In this document: in pieces, positions 23,944 through 54,934 of the stretch
Numbering within the stretch: the stretch's first letter is position 1
Layout: the number at the start of each line of letters is the position of its first letter
From: Candidatus Heimdallarchaeota archaeon
GTDB lineage: Archaea > Asgardarchaeota > Heimdallarchaeia > Heimdallarchaeales > Heimdallarchaeaceae
DNA: 64,000 bases
Direction: 5' to 3'
Assembly (NCBI GenBank): GCA_030668875.1
Contig: DAOVER010000005.1
Location: 26,597 to 90,596, forward strand
Notes under the pieces: model-generated
The model's database searches: none
Told to the model about the DNA's origin: nothing
Seen by the model: only the letters and a program-made list of their open reading frames with translations
Made by a program: the position numbers and the translations under genes

Positions 23944-25221
23944 ATGGGTGGAATTAAGAGAAAAAGAAAGAAAATCGAAACGCCAGGTCATCCTTATGAT
24001 AAAGCTCGCTTAGAGAGAGAACTCCCTCTTGTTGGTGCTTATGGTTTAAGAAACAAGCGCGAATTATGGAAAGCAAGAACTATTCTTTCTACAGCTAGAC
24101 AACAAGCTAGAGGCTTACTAGCTCTTGACCCTGAAATTAGAAAAGTTAGAGAACAAGAACTTCTTTCAAGACTCTCTCGTTTTGGTATGTTATCTCAGAA
24201 TAGCAATCTTGACTCTGTTTTAGCACTTGAAATTAAAGTCATTCTTGAAAGAAGACTTCAAACAATTGTATTCAGAAAAGGTTTAGCATCCTCTCCGTAC
24301 CAAGCTCGTCAATTTATTGCTCACAGACACATAGCTATTGGAACTGGTGTTGCAACATCTCCTAGCAGATTAATCACAATAGCTGAAGAGGAGATAGTCA
24401 ACTACGCTCCCCGTTCTCCACTGAATGATCAAACTCATCCTTCGCGACCTCAAGCACCTCCTGCTTTTGATGCGGGGCAACCTGAGAAAAGGGAAGAACA
24501 TAAGCGTGAAAGAACTGGAAGAGATGGCAAACCTAGAAGGAAAGAAGCTCCAAAGAAGGAAACTAAACCAGGAGTTAAACCAAAACCAGAGGTAAAGAAG
24601 GAAACTCCAAAGAAAGAAGCTCCAAAGAAGGAAACTAAACCAGGAGTTAAACCAAAACCAGAGGTAAAGAAGGAAACTCCAAAGAAAGAAGTTCCAAAGA
24701 AGGAAACTCCAAAACCAGAGGTAAAGAAGGAAACTCCAAAGAAAGAAGTTCCAAAGAAGGAAACTCCAAAACCAGAGGTAAAGAAGGAAACTCCAAAACC
24801 AGAGGTAAAAAAGGAAACTCCAAAACCAGAGGTTAAAACAAAGCCAGAAGTGAAGAAAGAGGTTCCAAAGAAGGAAACTAAACCAGAAGTTAAAACAAAG
24901 CCAGAGGTAAAGAAGGAAACTCCAAAACCAGAGGTAAAGAAGGAAACTCCAAAACCAGAGGTTAAAACAAAGCCAGAAGTAAAGAAAGAAGCTCCAAAGA
25001 AGGAAACTAAAATCTCTGACCTTGACATCTCTTTGATAAAAGGTATTGGTGCAAAAACTGCCATGCTTCTCAAAGAAAATGGCTTTGATACTGTTGGTAA
25101 GATTGCTAAGGCAACTACTGAAGAACTTTCCAAAGTTCCAGGTGTTGGTCCCGCTACTGCATCAGCTATGAATAGTGAAGCTAAAGTTTTGCTTTCAAAG
25201 AAAGCTGAGGATAAGAAGTAG
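23944..25221 (+). CDS. rps4: 30S ribosomal protein S4 (uS4) with ~245-aa C-terminal extension: Lys-rich KPEVKKETPK repeats plus a helix-hairpin-helix module
   Basis: Canonical archaeal S4 N-terminus MGGIKRKRKKIETPGHPYD...GLRNKRELWK, then repeats, then IKGIGAKTA...VPGVGPATA HhH. Confidence 0.85.
   Translation: MGGIKRKRKKIETPGHPYDKARLERELPLVGAYGLRNKRELWKARTILSTARQQARGLLALDPEIRKVREQELLSRLSRFGMLSQNSNLDSVLALEIKVILERRLQTIVFRKGLASSPYQARQFIAHRHIAIGTGVATSPSRLITIAEEEIVNYAPRSPLNDQTHPSRPQAPPAFDAGQPEKREEHKRERTGRDGKPRRKEAPKKETKPGVKPKPEVKKETPKKEAPKKETKPGVKPKPEVKKETPKKEVPKKETPKPEVKKETPKKEVPKKETPKPEVKKETPKPEVKKETPKPEVKTKPEVKKEVPKKETKPEVKTKPEVKKETPKPEVKKETPKPEVKTKPEVKKEAPKKETKISDLDISLIKGIGAKTAMLLKENGFDTVGKIAKATTEELSKVPGVGPATASAMNSEAKVLLSKKAEDKK
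24541..25010 (+). repeat. in-frame tandem repeat (30/60/72-nt units) encoding KPEVKKETPK-type Lys/Pro/Glu-rich repeats inside the S4 gene
   Basis: Repeated ccaaaaccagaggtaaagaaggaaactccaaag units are visible directly. Confidence 0.7.
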
Positions 25222-25228
25222 GTGAAGT

Positions 25229-25714
25229 ATGATGAGTAAAAAAGAAGAAACTAAAGTTAAATCTGAAGAAAAGTCTGAAGAAAAAACTGAAACAACAGAA
25301 TCTTCGCGACCTGAGCGACCAAGAAGAAGAGAATCTAAACACGGGATAGCACATATCTTTTCAAGCTATAATGACACAATCATCCACATAACAGACATCT
25401 CTGGAGCTGAAACATTCAGCCGTAAAAGTGGAGGAATGTTTGTGAAAGCAGACAGAAATGAATCAAGTCCTTATGCAGCAATGAAAGCAGCAAACGCAGC
25501 AGCACAAGAATCGCAAGCAAAAGGAATATATCAACTGTATGTAAGATATAGGGCACCAGGAGGACATAAAAATAGAACTCCAGGACCAGGAACACAAGCA
25601 GCATTACGTGCACTGAAAAGATCAGGAATGAGAATAATAAGACTAGAAGATGTAACTCCATTGCCACACAATGGTTGTAGGAGAAAGGGTGGCCGTAGAG
25701 GCCGTAGAATGTAG
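25229..25714 (+). CDS. rps11: 30S ribosomal protein S11 (uS11) with ~30-aa K/E-rich N-terminal extension
   Basis: GIAHIF.S.NDTIIH...[22 protein letters not shown]. Confidence 0.9.
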
Positions 25715-25805
25715 TTTTCATCTTTTTCCATTTCCTTATTTTTACTTTCATTTTTGTAATGTTTGGGTTTATATCCCATTTTCTTTATTATAATTTGAAG
25801 AGTTT

Positions 25806-26252
25806 ATGACAATTACTAAAGCTAAAATATTTGCATGTGAAATCTGTGGGAAAGAGTTTGGAAGAAAGGACAATCTAGGAAGGCACAAAATAACAGTTCA
25901 TTCCAAATCACAGAAGCATAAATGTCCAAAGTGCAATTTTTCTTCAACAAGAAAAGATAGTCTTGATAAACATATCAAAGAAGTTCACAGTGAAGTAAAG
26001 CAATATTCTTGTAAAATGTGTGGAGAAAGGTTCACACAAAAAGGGAGTATGGAAAGGCATATAGATTCCTCTCATAAAGACGTTTTTTCTTTTGCATGTC
26101 CCAAATGCAATTCAATTTTCTCAAGAAAAGATAGCTTGTTACGACATATCAGAAGTGTGCACGAAGGTATAAGACCTCACAAATGTTCAGAATGTGGTAA
26201 AAGCTTTCAACATAAACATCATCTGAAGGATCACCTAATTTTAGGTCATTGA
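25806..26252 (+). CDS. tandem C2H2 zinc-finger protein (5 fingers)
   Basis: Five C-x2-C-x12-H-x4-H units, e.g. CEICGKEFGRKDNLGRHKITVH. Confidence 0.8.
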   Translation: MTITKAKIFACEICGKEFGRKDNLGRHKITVHSKSQKHKCPKCNFSSTRKDSLDKHIKEVHSEVKQYSCKMCGERFTQKGSMERHIDSSHKDVFSFACPKCNSIFSRKDSLLRHIRSVHEGIRPHKCSECGKSFQHKHHLKDHLILGH

Positions 26253-26261
26253 GGGAAGGAA

Positions 26262-27425
26262 ATGAGTAACTCGGAAAAAATAATAATGCGACCAACTTGT
26301 GAAATCTGCGGTCTTAGTTTTTCAAGAAAAGACAGTTTGTATAGACACAAACGATCAGTTCATTCAGAGTCAAAGAAATATAGCTGTACAGAATGCAATC
26401 TCACATTTTCTCGTAAAGATACACTGGATCGTCACATCAATGATGTCCACAAACAAATAAGGAAATATATTTGTACCATATGTGACGAGAAGTTCAAACA
26501 AGCGGGTGCTCTAAAAAGACATATCCAAACAATGCATGAGAAGAATATTAGTTATGAATGTCCAAACTGTGATGCAGCATTCCCGCGTAAAGACAACCTA
26601 GACAGACACATAAATGCCGTTCATTTAAACCTCCGACCCCACATTTGCCAGGAATGTGGTGCAGCTTTCAAACTACCTGATCACCTTAAGCAGCACATTA
26701 TTTCCATACATACTGACCGGCGTCAATATGTTTGTGATGAATGTGGTTTTGCTTTCAAACTTCGTCAACATCTAAATGATCATGTCAAAGTTGTTCACCT
26801 AGGTCTTCGTTCTTATGCTTGTGAGGAATGTGATTCTTCTTTTGCTCATGCTCGTGCTCTTAAGCAACACATTATTTCTGTTCATACCGATGAACTTCCT
26901 TATGTTTGCGAGAAATGTAAGAGAGGATTTGCAGATCCTAGTCATCTATATAGGCATGAAAAAGCTGAAGCTTGTTGGTTTACAACTACTACTGCCTACA
27001 AATGGGAAGAGCTTTGTAAAGAGATAGCTGAGATTCTTTTAGAGGAAAAGAATTGGGAGTGGAAACCTACTATAGAAACACCTGAGTTGGTTGAACAGAC
27101 TAGAGTGCAGCCTGAGATTGTTATCTATAATGATGATGGTACGATGGATTTTATCGATGCTAAGAGGTCTACTTATGCTATTTTCAAGGAGAAGGATCTG
27201 GTAGTTTATCCTAAGGTGGCTAGGAGGGTGGAGTTCTGGTGCCTCTACGGTAAAACCAAGGGGATATTTGAAGAGGAGGAAGGGGTGGAAGCGAAATCAA
27301 GTGAAGAAATCATTGGCAAACTAGAAAAGGAAGATTCGCATGATGGACAGAGAGTAAGGAATCTAATAATGAAGATTAGTTTATTGAAAAAGGGAATAAG
27401 ATTTGAAGGACAACAGACACTGTAG
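26262..27425 (+). CDS. tandem C2H2 zinc-finger protein (~9 fingers) with ~140-aa non-finger C-terminal domain
   Basis: Repeated C-x2-C-x12-H-x4-H units through to ~aa 240. Confidence 0.8.
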   Translation: MSNSEKIIMRPTCEICGLSFSRKDSLYRHKRSVHSESKKYSCTECNLTFSRKDTLDRHINDVHKQIRKYICTICDEKFKQAGALKRHIQTMHEKNISYECPNCDAAFPRKDNLDRHINAVHLNLRPHICQECGAAFKLPDHLKQHIISIHTDRRQYVCDECGFAFKLRQHLNDHVKVVHLGLRSYACEECDSSFAHARALKQHIISVHTDELPYVCEKCKRGFADPSHLYRHEKAEACWFTTTTAYKWEELCKEIAEILLEEKNWEWKPTIETPELVEQTRVQPEIVIYNDDGTMDFIDAKRSTYAIFKEKDLVVYPKVARRVEFWCLYGKTKGIFEEEEGVEAKSSEEIIGKLEKEDSHDGQRVRNLIMKISLLKKGIRFEGQQTL

Positions 27426-27464: not shown

Positions 27465-28283
27465 TCAATACCCATACCTTGAGGGTAAGCTTGATCTGTA
27501 ATCATAACTTCTAAACAAGTTTTCAATTAACCGAGGGATAGATTCGCCCCTAAAATCTCTAACTGTGTCTATTATATCGTCATCTTTACCCTCTAACAGC
27601 TTCAACCAAAGCTGAGGTTTGTATCTTACAATGTTGGAAAGCATCCAAGAACCTACAAATGCATCAAATGGGTTATAACTTCCTATCACATCAACAAATG
27701 AAGGAACAGATCTCTTTTCCAAATAATCAGAAATATTTGGAAAGCCCTTGAGATTGTCTTCAGCTAAAAGAAGTAGTAAGCTGTAAAAAACACCTTTATC
27801 ATAGACTTTAGCATGCATATACGGTCTGTTTTCTACATATTTGCCTTTTTTCGAAAGACCATGATGAGTGAAGAAAAACACCTCGTCTTTCATTTCATAT
27901 TCAAGACAGAACACTCCTTTGACACATTGTAATAATGCATAGTATTCAACAAGTGGGCTAGAGTTTTCATCCATTTTTAAGGCAGTTTTAAACATCTCAT
28001 AGATCTGTTGAAAATAGATACTAGAATAAATAGCTATTTCAGTATAATCGATTTCAAAATCCCTAGTTTTCACTAGATTTGCTTTCTTATGGATATTTTC
28101 TAGAAGATTAATTTTTGCATCTTTACGCTCTCTTTCAGTCTTATGGATTCTTCTAGATTTCATTTGCTCTTCTTTTGAATCACAGGTTGGATTGAACCTG
28201 GTAATCAATTTTTTCTTAAGATAATATGGAATAGAGTATTTCTCAAGATTATAGAGAACGATTTGGTGATACTTGTCAATCAT
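27465..28283 (-). CDS. hypothetical protein, distal gene of a two-gene operon with the PLD nuclease (2-nt spacing)
   Basis: 272-aa ORF with no recognisable motif. Confidence 0.35.
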   Translation of the reverse strand: MIDKYHQIVLYNLEKYSIPYYLKKKLITRFNPTCDSKEEQMKSRRIHKTERERKDAKINLLENIHKKANLVKTRDFEIDYTEIAIYSSIYFQQIYEMFKTALKMDENSSPLVEYYALLQCVKGVFCLEYEMKDEVFFFTHHGLSKKGKYVENRPYMHAKVYDKGVFYSLLLLLAEDNLKGFPNISDYLEKRSVPSFVDVIGSYNPFDAFVGSWMLSNIVRYKPQLWLKLLEGKDDDIIDTVRDFRGESIPRLIENLFRSYDYRSSLPSRYGY

Positions 28284-28285
28284 TA

Positions 28286-29068
28286 TTAAACCTCAGTTTT
28301 ATTAATTTTCAATCGGATTGGTTTCAGTTGTCTATAGCAAGAACGGCAGGCAGGTTTATTTGTTGAAATACTTACCTCAGCTCCACATATGTGACAATAA
28401 TTTCCCTTAACAAAACCTCTTCTCTTATCTTTCCAACAATCCTTACACCTTATAACGTGGGTCTCTATTGCATCAAGAGCTATTTTTTTCTTGCAAACTA
28501 TGCAAAAACCCAGTTCTTCTTGATTTTCAGCATAAACAGTAAAGTGTTCTCCTTCTTGTTTGAATTGTAGCTCAATCGCCTGTTTACCATTATCAATAGC
28601 TCTAATTTCTTCTCCATTTCTAACAAGAACTGAGATATATTTATCAATCAATTCTAAGTTAGGCAAATCGTCTTCACCTTCGAAATCGACTCCAATCTCA
28701 AAGTTATCCTTTAGTGAATGGTAATAAAGATTCATTGAAGTAGTTAATGCTCTATCTCCATTATAATAACACTTTGCATGAAGATTAGGTACAAGCCAAA
28801 TTTCATCAGAATAATCGTATAGCTTATCTCTTATAGCTTGTGTTTTCGTCAACCTTTTCTCAGCTGATTTATCATCTGGTTTTCTTGTAATAAAGACAAT
28901 TTGCAGATCTTTGTTTTGTTCTATTAAACTATCCATTAACCTAGACCACTGACCATCTTTTTTTTCAAGTTGAATATAGGGGCTAACTATATGTATGTGT
29001 TTAGTAGCCCTTTCAACTATTTCCTCTATAGCCCCAAATATAGAGCCAGTGCTTGTTAGAATTTTCAC
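28286..29068 (-). CDS. phospholipase-D-family (HKD) nuclease with C-terminal zinc ribbons
   Basis: LHAKCYYNGDRALTTSMNL is a HxK...D...S.N HKD motif. C-terminus has CIVCKK..C..C...C.ICG...C..C. Confidence 0.55.
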   Translation of the reverse strand: MKILTSTGSIFGAIEEIVERATKHIHIVSPYIQLEKKDGQWSRLMDSLIEQNKDLQIVFITRKPDDKSAEKRLTKTQAIRDKLYDYSDEIWLVPNLHAKCYYNGDRALTTSMNLYYHSLKDNFEIGVDFEGEDDLPNLELIDKYISVLVRNGEEIRAIDNGKQAIELQFKQEGEHFTVYAENQEELGFCIVCKKKIALDAIETHVIRCKDCWKDKRRGFVKGNYCHICGAEVSISTNKPACRSCYRQLKPIRLKINKTEV

Positions 29069-29139: not shown

Positions 29140-30141
29140 GTTAACTCAACTAAGATCGGTTACACTTTTGGGCAGGATATCTTTGGGAGGTTGGTTCATA
29201 AATCTTTCACCTGGAGTTTGGAGGTTGATTCCTTGATGAGGGCGGAAGAAGTTGTAATAGTCCCTATAGCGCCGGAGGTCAGCGTTACAATAAGCTAATC
29301 CCAGCCGCTTCAGCTCTCTGACGGTTGTACCATGCTGGCGCTCTACTTTCCCACAAGTCTCAGGGTGGAAGAAACGGCTGCGGATATGCTTTATTCCTTC
29401 CTGAGCGAGCACGCGGGTGAAGGTACTTGTCCCTCCTCGCATAGAGTGGAACTGTGCTCCATTGTCTGTTAGTACTTGCTGGGGACGCCTATAAAGCTGG
29501 AAGCAGTGGTGTAACCTTGTCAAGATCTCTTGCTGGCTAATAGGATGGGTGTAGAGTCTACTCTCCAGGAGGAAGCGGGAGTGGTCATCAATGATGGTTA
29601 AAAGATAAAGGTGTTGTCCTTGCTCTTCCACCCAGAAGGGACCTTTGATATCCAGTTGCCAGAGGTCATTGGGTTTGGGTCGTTCGAATCTCTTTCTCGC
29701 CTTCTTCTTGTACGGTTTCTTTCTCCAAGGAGGTTCTCCTTCTCGTTGGAGAGTCTTCCAGATGGTGGTGTGGGAGAGCACCAAGCCTTTCCTCTTGAAC
29801 CATTGCTCAGTCTGCATGATGTTCAAGCCATAGGCTCGTCTCAAGGTGAGGATCTTCTTCTTTATCTGTGGTGTTACCTTTCTCCTTATGCATCTTGGTC
29901 GTCGAGAGCGTTCTTCCCACCATTTTCCCTTGGGGTTCTCACGATAACGTCTTAACCAGGTGTAGACGAATTTTCTTGAGACCATGTACTGTCGAGCAAG
30001 GTGGGTGATAGGTGTTCTTTTCAAAGCCTTTTTAACTACGCGTTTCCTTATAAGTGTCGGGTTACTGTTCGGGTTCATTTAACTCATTTACCCACGGTAA
30101 CCCCTCTTATTTAACTGTCACCAATGTGGGTGGAGTTAACA
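29139..30141 (-). mobile_element. IS481-like insertion sequence (~1.0 kb), GC-rich relative to its surroundings
   Basis: Terminal inverted repeats TGTTAACTCAAC (29139-) and its complement GTGGAGTTAACA (-30141). Single DDE transposase ORF inside. Flanked by 17-bp direct repeats. Confidence 0.7.
29146..30078 (-). CDS. DDE transposase, IS481 family (HTH + rve integrase core)
   Basis: WQLDIKG...IIDDHSR...LTDNGAQF rve-core motifs. Confidence 0.8.
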   Translation of the reverse strand: MNPNSNPTLIRKRVVKKALKRTPITHLARQYMVSRKFVYTWLRRYRENPKGKWWEERSRRPRCIRRKVTPQIKKKILTLRRAYGLNIMQTEQWFKRKGLVLSHTTIWKTLQREGEPPWRKKPYKKKARKRFERPKPNDLWQLDIKGPFWVEEQGQHLYLLTIIDDHSRFLLESRLYTHPISQQEILTRLHHCFQLYRRPQQVLTDNGAQFHSMRGGTSTFTRVLAQEGIKHIRSRFFHPETCGKVERQHGTTVRELKRLGLAYCNADLRRYRDYYNFFRPHQGINLQTPGERFMNQPPKDILPKSVTDLS

Positions 30142-30175: not shown

Positions 30176-31246
30176 TCATCGTTGTCTTATAACATAATTT
30201 ACAATTGTTTCAACCTCTTTTGAAGAAAATGTTTCTTCGAAATAAGAGATATAATTCACTATTTCTTTAAGTGAAAGAACTTTCACAAACTGAAATTGCT
30301 CTTTAGGTTTAGCATTAGTCATTAGAAGCACACTACGAATAGCGATTTTCTTTTTTCCCCAATGATGAGAACTAAGACGAAGAGAACCACTAGAAACAGA
30401 GCTATTTAGAAGAGTGAAAAGAGCAAAATTTGCACGTCTAATTTGTTTAACTGGTGAAAACAGGTTCAGATTTTGTAGAGATTTCTCGCTCCAGTTTTTA
30501 GTTTCAAGTAAAAACACTCCTGAAGGACCAACAACAAGATGGTCAACTTGTATAGATAATATTTTATCATTTTCTTTTCTATTGCAAATTGGACGATTAA
30601 AAGACATCTGAAGATCATTGATAACAGTGAATGTATCTGGAAGTTTCTTTAGTTCTTCAGTAACTTGTTGTTCTCCTATGGTTCCAGAAATTAGGGTGTA
30701 GTTATCATCTAAAATTCTATTTATGAGATTGATTCGGTTAGTATAATTTTGAGATCGTTTTGATATTAAGGTTTCAAAGTTGGTTTCACGATAGGTTACA
30801 TCGCGTTCTAGATTCTTAATTTTCTTGGAAAGATGACGAAAGGGTTTTTCAACTTCATCTATAAAATAGTGTGTCAACTTGTCAAGTCTTTTAGAAAGTT
30901 GATTGAGTTTAATTTTGTAAAATAGGAGCTTGAAAGGATTCTTAGTCGATGAGGAATATTGAATGATCTTAGAAGGGATTAGTTCTTTTTCTTCATTAAG
31001 TAATTTTGTTTGATTAGATATCATCTCTTGATATTGATTTGTGAGTAGAGTATAATCGGATTTAAGTTGACTAATTTCAGCAAGAAGTTTCTCTTTTTGC
31101 TGTTCTTGATGCTGTGAAATAGAATTTTTCCAAGTTTTCTTAAAAGTCTGTATTGATTCAAGAGTTGAAAACTCTCTGATGTTATTTTGTTTTAAGACAT
31201 ATAGAAGATGATTAAGAGAACTAGAATTACCATATATGCGAGCCAA
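30176..31246 (-). CDS. NERD (nuclease-related domain) protein with N-terminal coiled coil
   Basis: The C-terminal half, IQVDHLVVGPSGVFLLETKNW, fits the NERD domain. Confidence 0.55.
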   Translation of the reverse strand: MARIYGNSSSLNHLLYVLKQNNIREFSTLESIQTFKKTWKNSISQHQEQQKEKLLAEISQLKSDYTLLTNQYQEMISNQTKLLNEEKELIPSKIIQYSSSTKNPFKLLFYKIKLNQLSKRLDKLTHYFIDEVEKPFRHLSKKIKNLERDVTYRETNFETLISKRSQNYTNRINLINRILDDNYTLISGTIGEQQVTEELKKLPDTFTVINDLQMSFNRPICNRKENDKILSIQVDHLVVGPSGVFLLETKNWSEKSLQNLNLFSPVKQIRRANFALFTLLNSSVSSGSLRLSSHHWGKKKIAIRSVLLMTNAKPKEQFQFVKVLSLKEIVNYISYFEETFSSKEVETIVNYVIRQR

Positions 31247-31400
31247 AGAAATACCTCCATTCCAACGGAATATTCAATCAAACAATCTTAATAAAACTTG
31301 TTATGAACAGGTATTCGTCCATTTTATAATTTAGACCGTAGAATGTAGTTTTACTCATTCACATTTTTCTTTTATTTTTGTAATATTCTTATATACTGAA

Positions 31401-31885: not shown

Positions 31886-32335
31886 TCAATTCTCCTTTAT
31901 CGTACCGGTCAATTCGAGTAATTGTTCATATTGCCAAACGCGTTCCTTAGTATCAACTTTAGCAGCATAATTTGCTGCATGAACAGCGTGCCCTGCAACA
32001 TGGACAGTAGCAGTTGCATGACCAGCTGCACGTGCAACTGTACAAGCTACAGCGTTATCAACTTCTCTAGCCGCGGCATGAGCAGCAAATGCTGCAGAGC
32101 GTACCTTACCTACAGAGATCTCCCCATATGTCCATGAATGTGCTGCTTCTATCGCTTTCCTCGGTCGGTCATCATTGGGAAATTTATCTTCAAAATAGGA
32201 TAACACATGTTCCACACAATAAATCGCCCAGATCACCAATGATCTTTTTTCCATTTTGCTTGTAATCTCTGCAATCTTCTTCTTAAGGTCGCTCTCGGAA
32301 TTAAGGGCAGAACTATCCTCACTCATACTTACCAT
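31886..32335 (-). CDS. Ala/His-rich helical protein, function unknown
   Basis: AAHAAAREV...AARAAGHATATVHVAGHAVHAANYAA. Confidence 0.3.
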   Translation of the reverse strand: MVSMSEDSSALNSESDLKKKIAEITSKMEKRSLVIWAIYCVEHVLSYFEDKFPNDDRPRKAIEAAHSWTYGEISVGKVRSAAFAAHAAAREVDNAVACTVARAAGHATATVHVAGHAVHAANYAAKVDTKERVWQYEQLLELTGTIKEN

Positions 32336-44240: not shown

Positions 44241-45695
44241 GTGAATTACATGGTTTCAAAGTTCTTGATGCTATTCAAACCGTTTCAACGTTTTACCTTT
44301 GAGGTAAAGAAGCCAGCAAGAAAACCTTCTTTTAAAAGAAAGTTAGCTTGGACCTTCGGAATCCTAGCCCTCTATTTAGCTATGCTAAATATTCCTATTT
44401 TCGGTATACCTGAATCAGGTGGAACCGATCCCTTCTTCGCCATGAGGGCAATATTAGCTTCACAAAGAGGAAGCTTAGCAGAATTAGGTATAGGACCTAT
44501 TGTAACTGCTGGTTTGATTATGCAGTTACTTGTGGGATCACAAATTATCAAAGTTGATTTTACTAATCCTGAAGAACGTGCTCTATACACCGGAACACAA
44601 AAAATACTTGCTATATTGATGACCCTATTCGAAGCTTTAGCATATATTCTTGGTGGAGCTTATGGAGAGTTAGGTTTCCAAGCACAAATGATTGTATTAT
44701 TGCAATTAATTGTTGCAGGTTTTACCATTCTTCTTATGGATGAAGTTATCCAGAAAGGTTATGGACTTGGAAGCGGTATTAGTTTATTCATTGCTGCAAG
44801 TGTTTCATATACTATCTTTGATGGCATGTTCAGTTTAACGCAAGAAAGAATTGGAGGTTTTGATTGGTACAGAGGTTGCGTTCTCGCATTCTTTCAAGGT
44901 ATCTTCAAAGAAAATCCAGACATACTAACACCACTCAGTAGACCTGGTAGAACCCCCGATGTAATTGGTTTACTGGCAACAATAGTTGTTTTTGCAATGG
45001 TTATCTATGTAGACTCTATGAAAATTGAGATACCTGTCCAACACAGCCAATATAAGATGCCAGCCAGATATCCAATAAAATTCTTATATACGTCAAATAT
45101 CCCTGTAATCCTTGTAAGCGCCTTATTTGCAAACATCTACTTCGTTTCAAACCTAATGCACAACTCTTGGAGTGATATAACAACGGGTTATCAAGGATTC
45201 TTGGTCGACTTTTTCGGTAGATGGGATACGATAGAAGGCACGGAACAACTAACTCCAGTTTCGGGGCTAGCAGCTTTTACAACGGCACCGTATGGACCTG
45301 AACAAATTGCGGAGCAACCGTGGCATGCCCTAGTGTATTTACTATTAATGGTTGCACTTTGTGGTATCTTCTCGCGTATTTGGATAGATACGGCTGGGAT
45401 GAGTTCAAAAAATGTTGCGAAACAACTGTTAGATGCAAATATGCAAATACCTGGTTTTAGGCGTAATCCAAGGATTGTAGAAAGATATCTAGAAAGATAC
45501 ATTCCTACAGCAGCCTGGCTCGGAGGTTTCTTTATAGGTGTTCTAGCAGCAGTAGCGGACTTTCTGGGAGCTCTTGGTACGGGTACTGGTATTCTGTTAA
45601 CAACGGGTATTCTCCGTCAGTACTATGAAATCTTCGCTAGTGAACAAATTAGTGAAACTGTTCCAGCTTTAGCTGGAATGTTAGGAATAAAATAA
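44241..45695 (+). CDS. secY: preprotein translocase SecY (canonical copy)
   Basis: NIPIFGIP...GIGPIVTAGLIMQLLVGSQI plug/TM2 region, 10 TM segments. Confidence 0.9.
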   Translation: MNYMVSKFLMLFKPFQRFTFEVKKPARKPSFKRKLAWTFGILALYLAMLNIPIFGIPESGGTDPFFAMRAILASQRGSLAELGIGPIVTAGLIMQLLVGSQIIKVDFTNPEERALYTGTQKILAILMTLFEALAYILGGAYGELGFQAQMIVLLQLIVAGFTILLMDEVIQKGYGLGSGISLFIAASVSYTIFDGMFSLTQERIGGFDWYRGCVLAFFQGIFKENPDILTPLSRPGRTPDVIGLLATIVVFAMVIYVDSMKIEIPVQHSQYKMPARYPIKFLYTSNIPVILVSALFANIYFVSNLMHNSWSDITTGYQGFLVDFFGRWDTIEGTEQLTPVSGLAAFTTAPYGPEQIAEQPWHALVYLLLMVALCGIFSRIWIDTAGMSSKNVAKQLLDANMQIPGFRRNPRIVERYLERYIPTAAWLGGFFIGVLAAVADFLGALGTGTGILLTTGILRQYYEIFASEQISETVPALAGMLGIK

Positions 45696-53406: not shown

Positions 53407-54161
53407 TTCTTATCACCTTCGTTACCAGCAATTGTTACACTTGGAGTATCATTGCCCACAATGAAAATATATCTGAACAGTGTAACGAAAATCTCACCAT
53501 CAGGTGTCTTTATGGTCGCTGTTTTAGTTTTTTGTGTTCCATGAGAACTGATTTCTTCAATAGTTCCATGCTTACCCATCCACCTTCCACTAGTTACAAT
53601 ACCATAATTACCTATTTTCAATTCGTATTTTTCTAAAATCTTTTGATCTGGTAAAGATATCTTAACTGTGTCATGTGTATGGTAAGGAACACTATCGCTT
53701 TCAGATTTCTGTAAGATGATGTTTCTACCATCATGGAGATTTAGTTGTGTTAGACCTCCTTTGAGTGTAGTCTTATTCTTAATTTGGCAGAGTTTAACTT
53801 TTGTTTCATCTTCCTTAATTGGAATTGTCCTTAGACCTTTCTTCGGAGTATATACTAATCTATAATGTTCTTTTATTTTTGGGAAGGAAATAACATCCAT
53901 GAAACCTAGTGGGTATTTTCTGTTTGTTTTTATTTTTCCATCTATGAGAACATTTCTTTCAACCAATATACGTTTAACTTCACTCATGTTTCGAGCTACT
54001 CGGAACATATCACGGAGCATAATGGCCATTGGAATACATTCATGTGCAGCATGAGGACCAGGAGAGGGTTTAACCGTATAAGTATTAGCTTTCTTTTCAA
54101 TAGGTATATGTTTTGAAACAACGAATCTCTTCAGATGTCGTTTTCCACCGCCTTTTGTCAT
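53403..54161 (-). CDS. rps4e: 30S ribosomal protein S4e (eS4)
   Basis: GGKRHLKR N-terminus, KOW region. Confidence 0.9.
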   Translation of the reverse strand: MTKGGGKRHLKRFVVSKHIPIEKKANTYTVKPSPGPHAAHECIPMAIMLRDMFRVARNMSEVKRILVERNVLIDGKIKTNRKYPLGFMDVISFPKIKEHYRLVYTPKKGLRTIPIKEDETKVKLCQIKNKTTLKGGLTQLNLHDGRNIILQKSESDSVPYHTHDTVKISLPDQKILEKYELKIGNYGIVTSGRWMGKHGTIEEISSHGTQKTKTATIKTPDGEIFVTLFRYIFIVGNDTPSVTIAGNEGDKK

Positions 54162-54934
54162 ACTAATTCCTCCTTTTTATCTGTTTTCTCAGAAAGCAAA
54201 TCTTCTGCGTTAGCACTCATAGTTTTTGCTGTACCAGGACCAATACCAGGTACTTTTGAAAGCTCTTCTGAGGTTGCTTTGGCAATCTTATCAACAGTAT
54301 CAAAACCATTTTCTTTGAGAAGCATTGCGGTTTTAGCACCTATGCCCTTAATCATAGATATGTCAAGGTCAGAAACTTTGGTCTCCTCCTTGGGAGCTGC
54401 TTCTACAACATCTTTAGGAGCATCAGTTTCGTCAAGATCTTCGAATTCTTCAAAAATATCCTCTTCAAGATCTTCATCTTCTTCTTCGACATCAGATTCT
54501 TCTAAAGGCTCATCGAATTCATCAAATAGATCTTCAGTTAATTCTTCTTCAGTAAGTTCTTTTCTAGAACGTCTCTTAATGATCTCCCTTCTCTTTTTAT
54601 CACGTAAATTCAGAGAAGTAATTATGATGTTGCTTGGATGAACAGGAAAACTAGAGACTGTACCATCAGCTTTTTCCTTACTATATCCTTCGATATGAAC
54701 TGAATATTTCTGAGGTAAAACACGGATTACTTTACCTTTAATCTCTTGGTCTTCAGATTTAGCTCTGAAAACCAGTACTTTGTCATCTTTATGTACAGGA
54801 AGACGTCGAATACCATATTTATTTCTCAATTCACGTGAGAGAAGAGCAGTCATTTGACGATTGCGAAGATGTAAAGGAGCAGTATAATACCTCTTACGTT
54901 GTTTACGAGGTTGTTTTGTTTTTGTATATCTCAT
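54158..54934 (-). CDS. rpl24: 50S ribosomal protein L24 (uL24) with acidic linker and C-terminal helix-hairpin-helix module
   Basis: KOW DDKVLV..GK..G.V core, then D/E-rich stretch, then IKGIGAKTAMLLKENGFDTV...VPGIGPGTA. Confidence 0.85.
   Translation of the reverse strand: MRYTKTKQPRKQRKRYYTAPLHLRNRQMTALLSRELRNKYGIRRLPVHKDDKVLVFRAKSEDQEIKGKVIRVLPQKYSVHIEGYSKEKADGTVSSFPVHPSNIIITSLNLRDKKRREIIKRRSRKELTEEELTEDLFDEFDEPLEESDVEEEDEDLEEDIFEEFEDLDETDAPKDVVEAAPKEETKVSDLDISMIKGIGAKTAMLLKENGFDTVDKIAKATSEELSKVPGIGPGTAKTMSANAEDLLSEKTDKKEELV

Follow-up and report, generated by a model that had tools for sequence, protein, structure and literature searches.

A candidate natural zinc-finger nuclease encoded by an insertion cassette beside the ribosomal protein S11 gene of a Heimdallarchaeota archaeon

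Why would an archaeal chromosome carry two tandem, eukaryote-like C2H2 zinc-finger genes directly behind the gene for ribosomal protein S11 (rps11)? The question arises from a 64,000-nucleotide stretch of a Candidatus Heimdallarchaeota archaeon genome (GenBank assembly GCA_030668875.1, contig DAOVER010000005.1, positions 26,597 to 90,596 of the forward strand; hereafter the window), for which an original prediction had pictured the two genes as lineage-specific nucleic-acid-binding regulators; its observation held in part, and its interpretation is partly supported. We lean toward the reading that the locus carries a natural zinc-finger nuclease element targeting rps11: the two finger genes would be part of a small insertion cassette at rps11, and the second would encode a zinc-finger nuclease aimed at the end of the neighboring S11 gene (Table 1). 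Engineered zinc-finger nucleases join a C2H2 array to the cleavage domain of FokI and, to our knowledge, zinc-finger nucleases in general are known as products of human design; literature searches turned up no account of C2H2-nuclease fusions occurring naturally in archaea.

Pfam delimits stretches of five and eight fingers in the first and second gene, respectively, with an exact 29-residue period, which agrees with the earlier count for the first gene and lowers that for the second, previously put at about nine. The hidden Markov model check proposed at that time was run, and the matches to PF00096 exceed the gathering score. The spacing is canonical, as had been noted (C-x2-4-C-x12-H-x3-5-H, with a hydrophobic core of Phe and of Leu at helix position 4), and the linkers, correctly described as TGEKP-less, have the canonical length of 7 residues and other sequences, such as SESKKYS and LNLRPHI. 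TGEKP-type linkers are typical of eukaryotic polydactyl proteins and do not define the C2H2 family. The nuclease gene as a whole is under purifying selection (omega 0.09-0.23), and within its array fingers 5-8 are far more conserved than fingers 1-4 (entropy 0.4-0.9 versus 1.25-1.6 bits).

Fingers 1-4 bear Arg-1/Asp2/Arg6 on their helices, except that finger 3 bears Gln-1/Arg6; under the canonical recognition code these residues specify 5'-GNG GNA GNG GNG-3', and the target pattern GNGGNAGNGGNG was fixed with that code ahead of any search. In most related loci the pattern matches the T-P-L-P-H codons of S11, on the minus strand and 47-58 nt ahead of the stop codon. The matched sequence is antisense to the T-P-L-P-H codons, which are universally conserved, and the N positions of the pattern coincide with codon wobble positions. 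When predictions were made per genome, the S11 site ranked first in 17 of 20, and the contacts of Arg with G (six positions), Asp with C (two) and Gln with A (one) each hold in 18-20 of the 20 genomes. The contacts follow C2H2 base readout, with helix positions -1, 2, 3 and 6 used, three base pairs per finger and an array antiparallel to the primary strand. Within the window alone the significance of the match is weak, as 148 of 200 finger-order permutations reach the observed level, so it is the cross-genome tests that carry the target-site claim. Plus-strand matches in Gly/Arg codons of S11 at two loci (L001, L016) were weighed as a possible inverted partner site for dimerization and dismissed, since in their geometry they overlap the main site.

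The agreement extends to wobble bases. Finger residues co-vary with S11 bases; fingers 5, 6 and 8, in which position 3 is always His, lie opposite the three two-fold (pyrimidine) wobble sites, purines on the bound strand, and the five fingers with a variable position 3 face the five four-fold wobble sites. By prediction, the eight-finger array recognizes the 3' end of S11 precisely at the point of cassette insertion. The first gene, which has five fingers, four fingers or is absent depending on the relative, has base-contacting residues that agree with the resident S11 allele, wobble bases included, and encodes a nuclease-free copy that is predicted to fit the S11 sequence of its own host at every base.

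Conservation in the zinc-finger nuclease protein is highest over its last 150 residues, although a single sequence and two profiles returned no match in Pfam or among PDB sequences. An exhaustive profile search recovered this C-terminal domain from proteins that form 67 clusters at 50% identity, nearly always in C-terminal position and with a recurring motif, P-[DE]-[ILV]...[ILV]-[DE]-x-K. Residues E249, P284-E285 and D299-A-K301 do not vary among 24 orthologues, and the P, the K and the acidic positions are also conserved across the diverse family. A model from a shallow orthologue alignment (predicted local distance difference test score, pLDDT, of 45) was discarded; with diverse family members added, AlphaFold2 modeled the nuclease domain at a pLDDT of 90.9, and the best Foldseek matches of this model are AF1548, EcoO109I, McrC, Card1, NucS and Bax1. 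The catalytic-type residues fall on a predicted helix and consecutive strands within an alpha-beta-beta-beta-alpha-beta core, with an acidic residue on helix 1, (P)D/E on strand 2 and (D/E)-x-K on strand 3, the signature of PD-(D/E)xK enzymes. The modeled fold and the motif together suggest that the domain is a PD-(D/E)xK nuclease capable of cleavage. In the nuclease core omega is 0.04-0.18. Synonymous divergence there is much lower than in the fingers, which hints at mosaic exchange.

Across the family, the N-terminal part bears C2H2 fingers that number 0 to 9 and whose recognition helices are unrelated; other members bear five DUF4379 treble-clef fingers, tandem helix-turn-helix (HTH) modules or homing-endonuclease-associated (HNH_repeat) repeats. 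Variant fusions occur among P0062, P0082, P0089, P0083 and P0107, the domain constituting an unnamed family, and one member, in an MSBL1 archaeon (L027), adjoins another HNH_repeat protein. A wider proposal, which we find plausible while leaning slightly against it, is that Heimdallarchaeaceae and a broader set of uncultured archaea possess modular natural zinc-finger nucleases, in which C2H2 arrays obeying the eukaryotic code guide a compact new PD-(D/E)xK domain to conserved genes, and in which the nuclease would be permissive at wobble positions, whereas a paired nuclease-free guardian array would be strict there and label the resident allele as self.

The boundaries of the cassette argue for an inserted element. 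It always lies directly 3' of rps11, is carried by some close relatives and missing from others, and has the last ~10 S11 codons duplicated at its far end. In the window the two repeats share a 17-nt exact copy, with similarity extending about 52-62 nt, and a second, decayed S11-tail copy lies downstream in at least 9 further genomes. Equivalents of the right repeat (L002, L006 with two copies, L008, L009, L010, L011, L012 and L025) stand just ahead of conserved AcylTE/LacB genes, and the best-preserved tail copies (L009, L012) begin 4-6 nt past the finger 8 subsite, finger 8 being the one to which the nuclease domain is attached. The cassette junction lies immediately next to the predicted site, and relatives lacking the zinc-finger nuclease (L028, L029) hold an intact core site. 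Between L008 and L028 there is a clean 1.66-kb deletion in the latter, and their identity changes from about 85% upstream of the site to 93% downstream. The locus combines the sporadic presence and mosaic or co-converted flanks of homing endonucleases with att-type direct repeats that duplicate the target gene 3' end; no tyrosine or serine recombinase was found in the element.

Several known systems share parts of this design. The R2 non-long-terminal-repeat retrotransposon protein joins N-terminal C2H2/Myb domains, a reverse transcriptase and a C-terminal restriction-like endonuclease. Free-standing homing endonucleases lie between conserved genes, in the same orientation, and cleave a neighboring conserved gene (PMC2988022). 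Like the seg and mob genes of T4-like phages ("intronless homing"), the second finger gene is co-oriented between conserved genes with its target in the conserved neighbor, is sporadic among relatives and shows a discontinuity of divergence across the site (PMC2988022). Unlike them, the cassette resides in a cellular archaeal chromosome rather than a phage, pairs a PD-(D/E)xK fold with a C2H2 targeting module in place of GIY-YIG or HNH, would cut within tens rather than hundreds of base pairs of the insertion, and brings a replacement target-gene 3' end and a nuclease-free paralogue. PD-(D/E)xK enzymes such as I-Ssp6803I are one of six recognized homing endonuclease families (PMC6083498, PMC3384342), and likewise place a restriction-endonuclease-fold core in a mobile-element nuclease. 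Asgard Tn7-like transposons carry C2H2 arrays in their TniQ targeting proteins, in a study that calls archaeal C2H2 fingers poorly characterized (bioRxiv 10.1101/2025.07.27.667033), and there too a tandem eukaryote-like array selects the target site of a mobile element. Finally, as in integrative elements at tRNA or protein gene 3' ends, a direct repeat of the target 3' end flanks element and cargo, and one site can be occupied serially (L006, two tail copies); unlike att-type elements, the cassette has no tyrosine or serine integrase, and the zinc-finger nuclease is the only candidate mobility protein of the minimal element.

Several observations weigh against a target-specific mobile nuclease. 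The predicted binding is read through a recognition code established on eukaryotic H-x3-H fingers, and no second, inverted site for FokI-like dimerization was seen. A single-protein scan found no relatives of the nuclease in viral contigs, and about half of the loci yielded no downstream S11-tail copy. In genomes that bear the cassette, the predicted site is intact and still contiguous with an intact S11 tail, so insertion gives none of the immunity that intron and intein endonucleases confer on the occupied allele. Nor did the sampled loci include a pristine, never-occupied site from a close relative, L028 being a deletion derivative.

These points must be set beside the alternatives. An account without a nuclease-bearing element, in which the fingers' site would be expected at the TATA box or B recognition element, seems unlikely: the predicted site lies within the coding region, the PD-(D/E)xK catalytic-type residues are invariant in orthologues and conserved behind unrelated DNA-binding arrays, and three features speak for an inserted element, namely the S11 tail duplication, the variable cargo and the clean deletion that one close relative shows. 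A reading built on the restriction-endonuclease fold and the neighboring genes can draw on that modeled fold, on the PLD/DrmC-like, NERD and Imm5-like proteins nearby, and on the faster evolution of fingers 1-4 relative to the rest of the protein, and we regard it as very improbable. Recognition of S11 mRNA by the fingers is more improbable still, as the code-matching bases are on the antisense strand, such that the mRNA does not contain the predicted sequence, and the matching Arg-1/Asp2/Arg6 contacts are a classic double-stranded DNA readout; moreover, a close relative does without the genes, and the insertion-element features would be left unexplained.

If the zinc-finger nuclease reading is true, evolution arrived on an Asgard mobile cassette at the design that engineers chose. 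If the wider proposal holds as well, mobile elements of the archaeal lineage closest to eukaryotes already relied on code-reading polydactyl C2H2 recognition, a point relevant to how the largest eukaryotic transcription-factor family arose, and the nuclease family would offer small, naturally retargetable protein-only nucleases. The use of a single compact nuclease domain with exchangeable DNA-binding arrays could interest genome engineers. For Asgard biology, the variable island by rps11 would be explained, eukaryote-like polydactyl fingers would gain an inferable function, and the idea that the finger genes replace rpoD is corrected.

Table 1. Coordinates of features at the rps11 locus (window positions).
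Feature	Position	Strand	Remark
rps11 (ribosomal protein S11)	25229..25714	+	predicted target gene
Minus-strand stretch inside rps11	25656..25679	-	
Left direct repeat (last 13 nt of S11 including stop codon, and T-rich spacer)	25702..25763	+	
Stretch between left direct repeat and first finger gene	25768..25774	+	
First (5-finger) zinc-finger gene	25806..26252	+	nuclease-free
Second zinc-finger gene	26262..27425	+	encodes the putative zinc-finger nuclease
Finger array (fingers 1-8) of nuclease gene	26292..26975	+	
C-terminal part of nuclease gene, after finger array	26976..27422	+	
Cargo: YaaC-like protein gene	27465-28283	-	
Cargo: PLD-family protein with double zinc ribbon	28286-29068	-	pairs with YaaC-like gene
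IS481-like DDE transposase	29146..30078	-	Pfam rve, HTH_28, rve_3
Cargo: NERD-domain protein	30176..31246	-	Pfam NERD
Right direct repeat (decayed second copy of S11 tail and T-rich spacer)	31336..31387	+	

The IS481-like transposase within the inserted region combines HTH_28/HTH_32 with rve/rve_3 and is probably an independent, secondary insertion inside the element. Just beyond the right repeat lies an Imm5-like immunity protein gene (31886-32335, minus strand) with no cognate toxin seen nearby; it is also found in a relative lacking the nuclease (L028, 8255-8581).

Co-transcription of the finger genes with S11, raised earlier as something to check, is judged unlikely given the T-tracts and conserved TATA-like element between the genes. 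The spacer layout, T-tracts followed by gGTTTATAT 35-40 nt ahead of the first finger gene, is conserved across loci, which favors a promoter of the finger genes' own over dependence on S11 read-through; the T-rich spacer is a probable terminator tract. A sigma-70 and intrinsic-terminator scan was uninformative, the models being bacterial and the host archaeal. As first reported, rpoD, L18e, L13 and S9 were not found among the scanned open reading frames of the window, and rpoD was not located in a Pfam scan of the larger frames over most of the window and of the flanks of related loci. Because S11 is also without a following rpoD in three Heimdallarchaeia loci that have no finger genes, this absence is a lineage property and not an effect of the finger genes.

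The ribosomal genes also vary. SecY is divergent just upstream of S13 in relatives (L001, L002, L004) and about 20 kb away in the window (44241-45695, plus strand), and the window has queuosine/RsmB genes upstream of S13, where L029 has them downstream of S11; these differences indicate that the S13-S4-S11 surroundings have been repeatedly rearranged. The N-terminal extension of S11 varies among close relatives, giving totals of 132 to 251 residues (window, L002, L006, L028, L029). Ribosomal protein S4 of the window (23944-25221, plus strand; 425 residues) comprises a normal S4 domain, about 190 residues of KPEVKKETP-type repeats and a C-terminal helix-hairpin-helix domain (HhH_5), a fusion conserved within the clade (also in L001, L002, L005 and L028) and absent from the S4 of distant Heimdallarchaeia (191-205 residues; L029, L030). 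Ribosomal protein L24 (Pfam Ribosomal_L26; 54158-54934, minus strand) also ends in HhH_5, and thus at least two ribosomal proteins gained the same DNA/RNA-binding tail.
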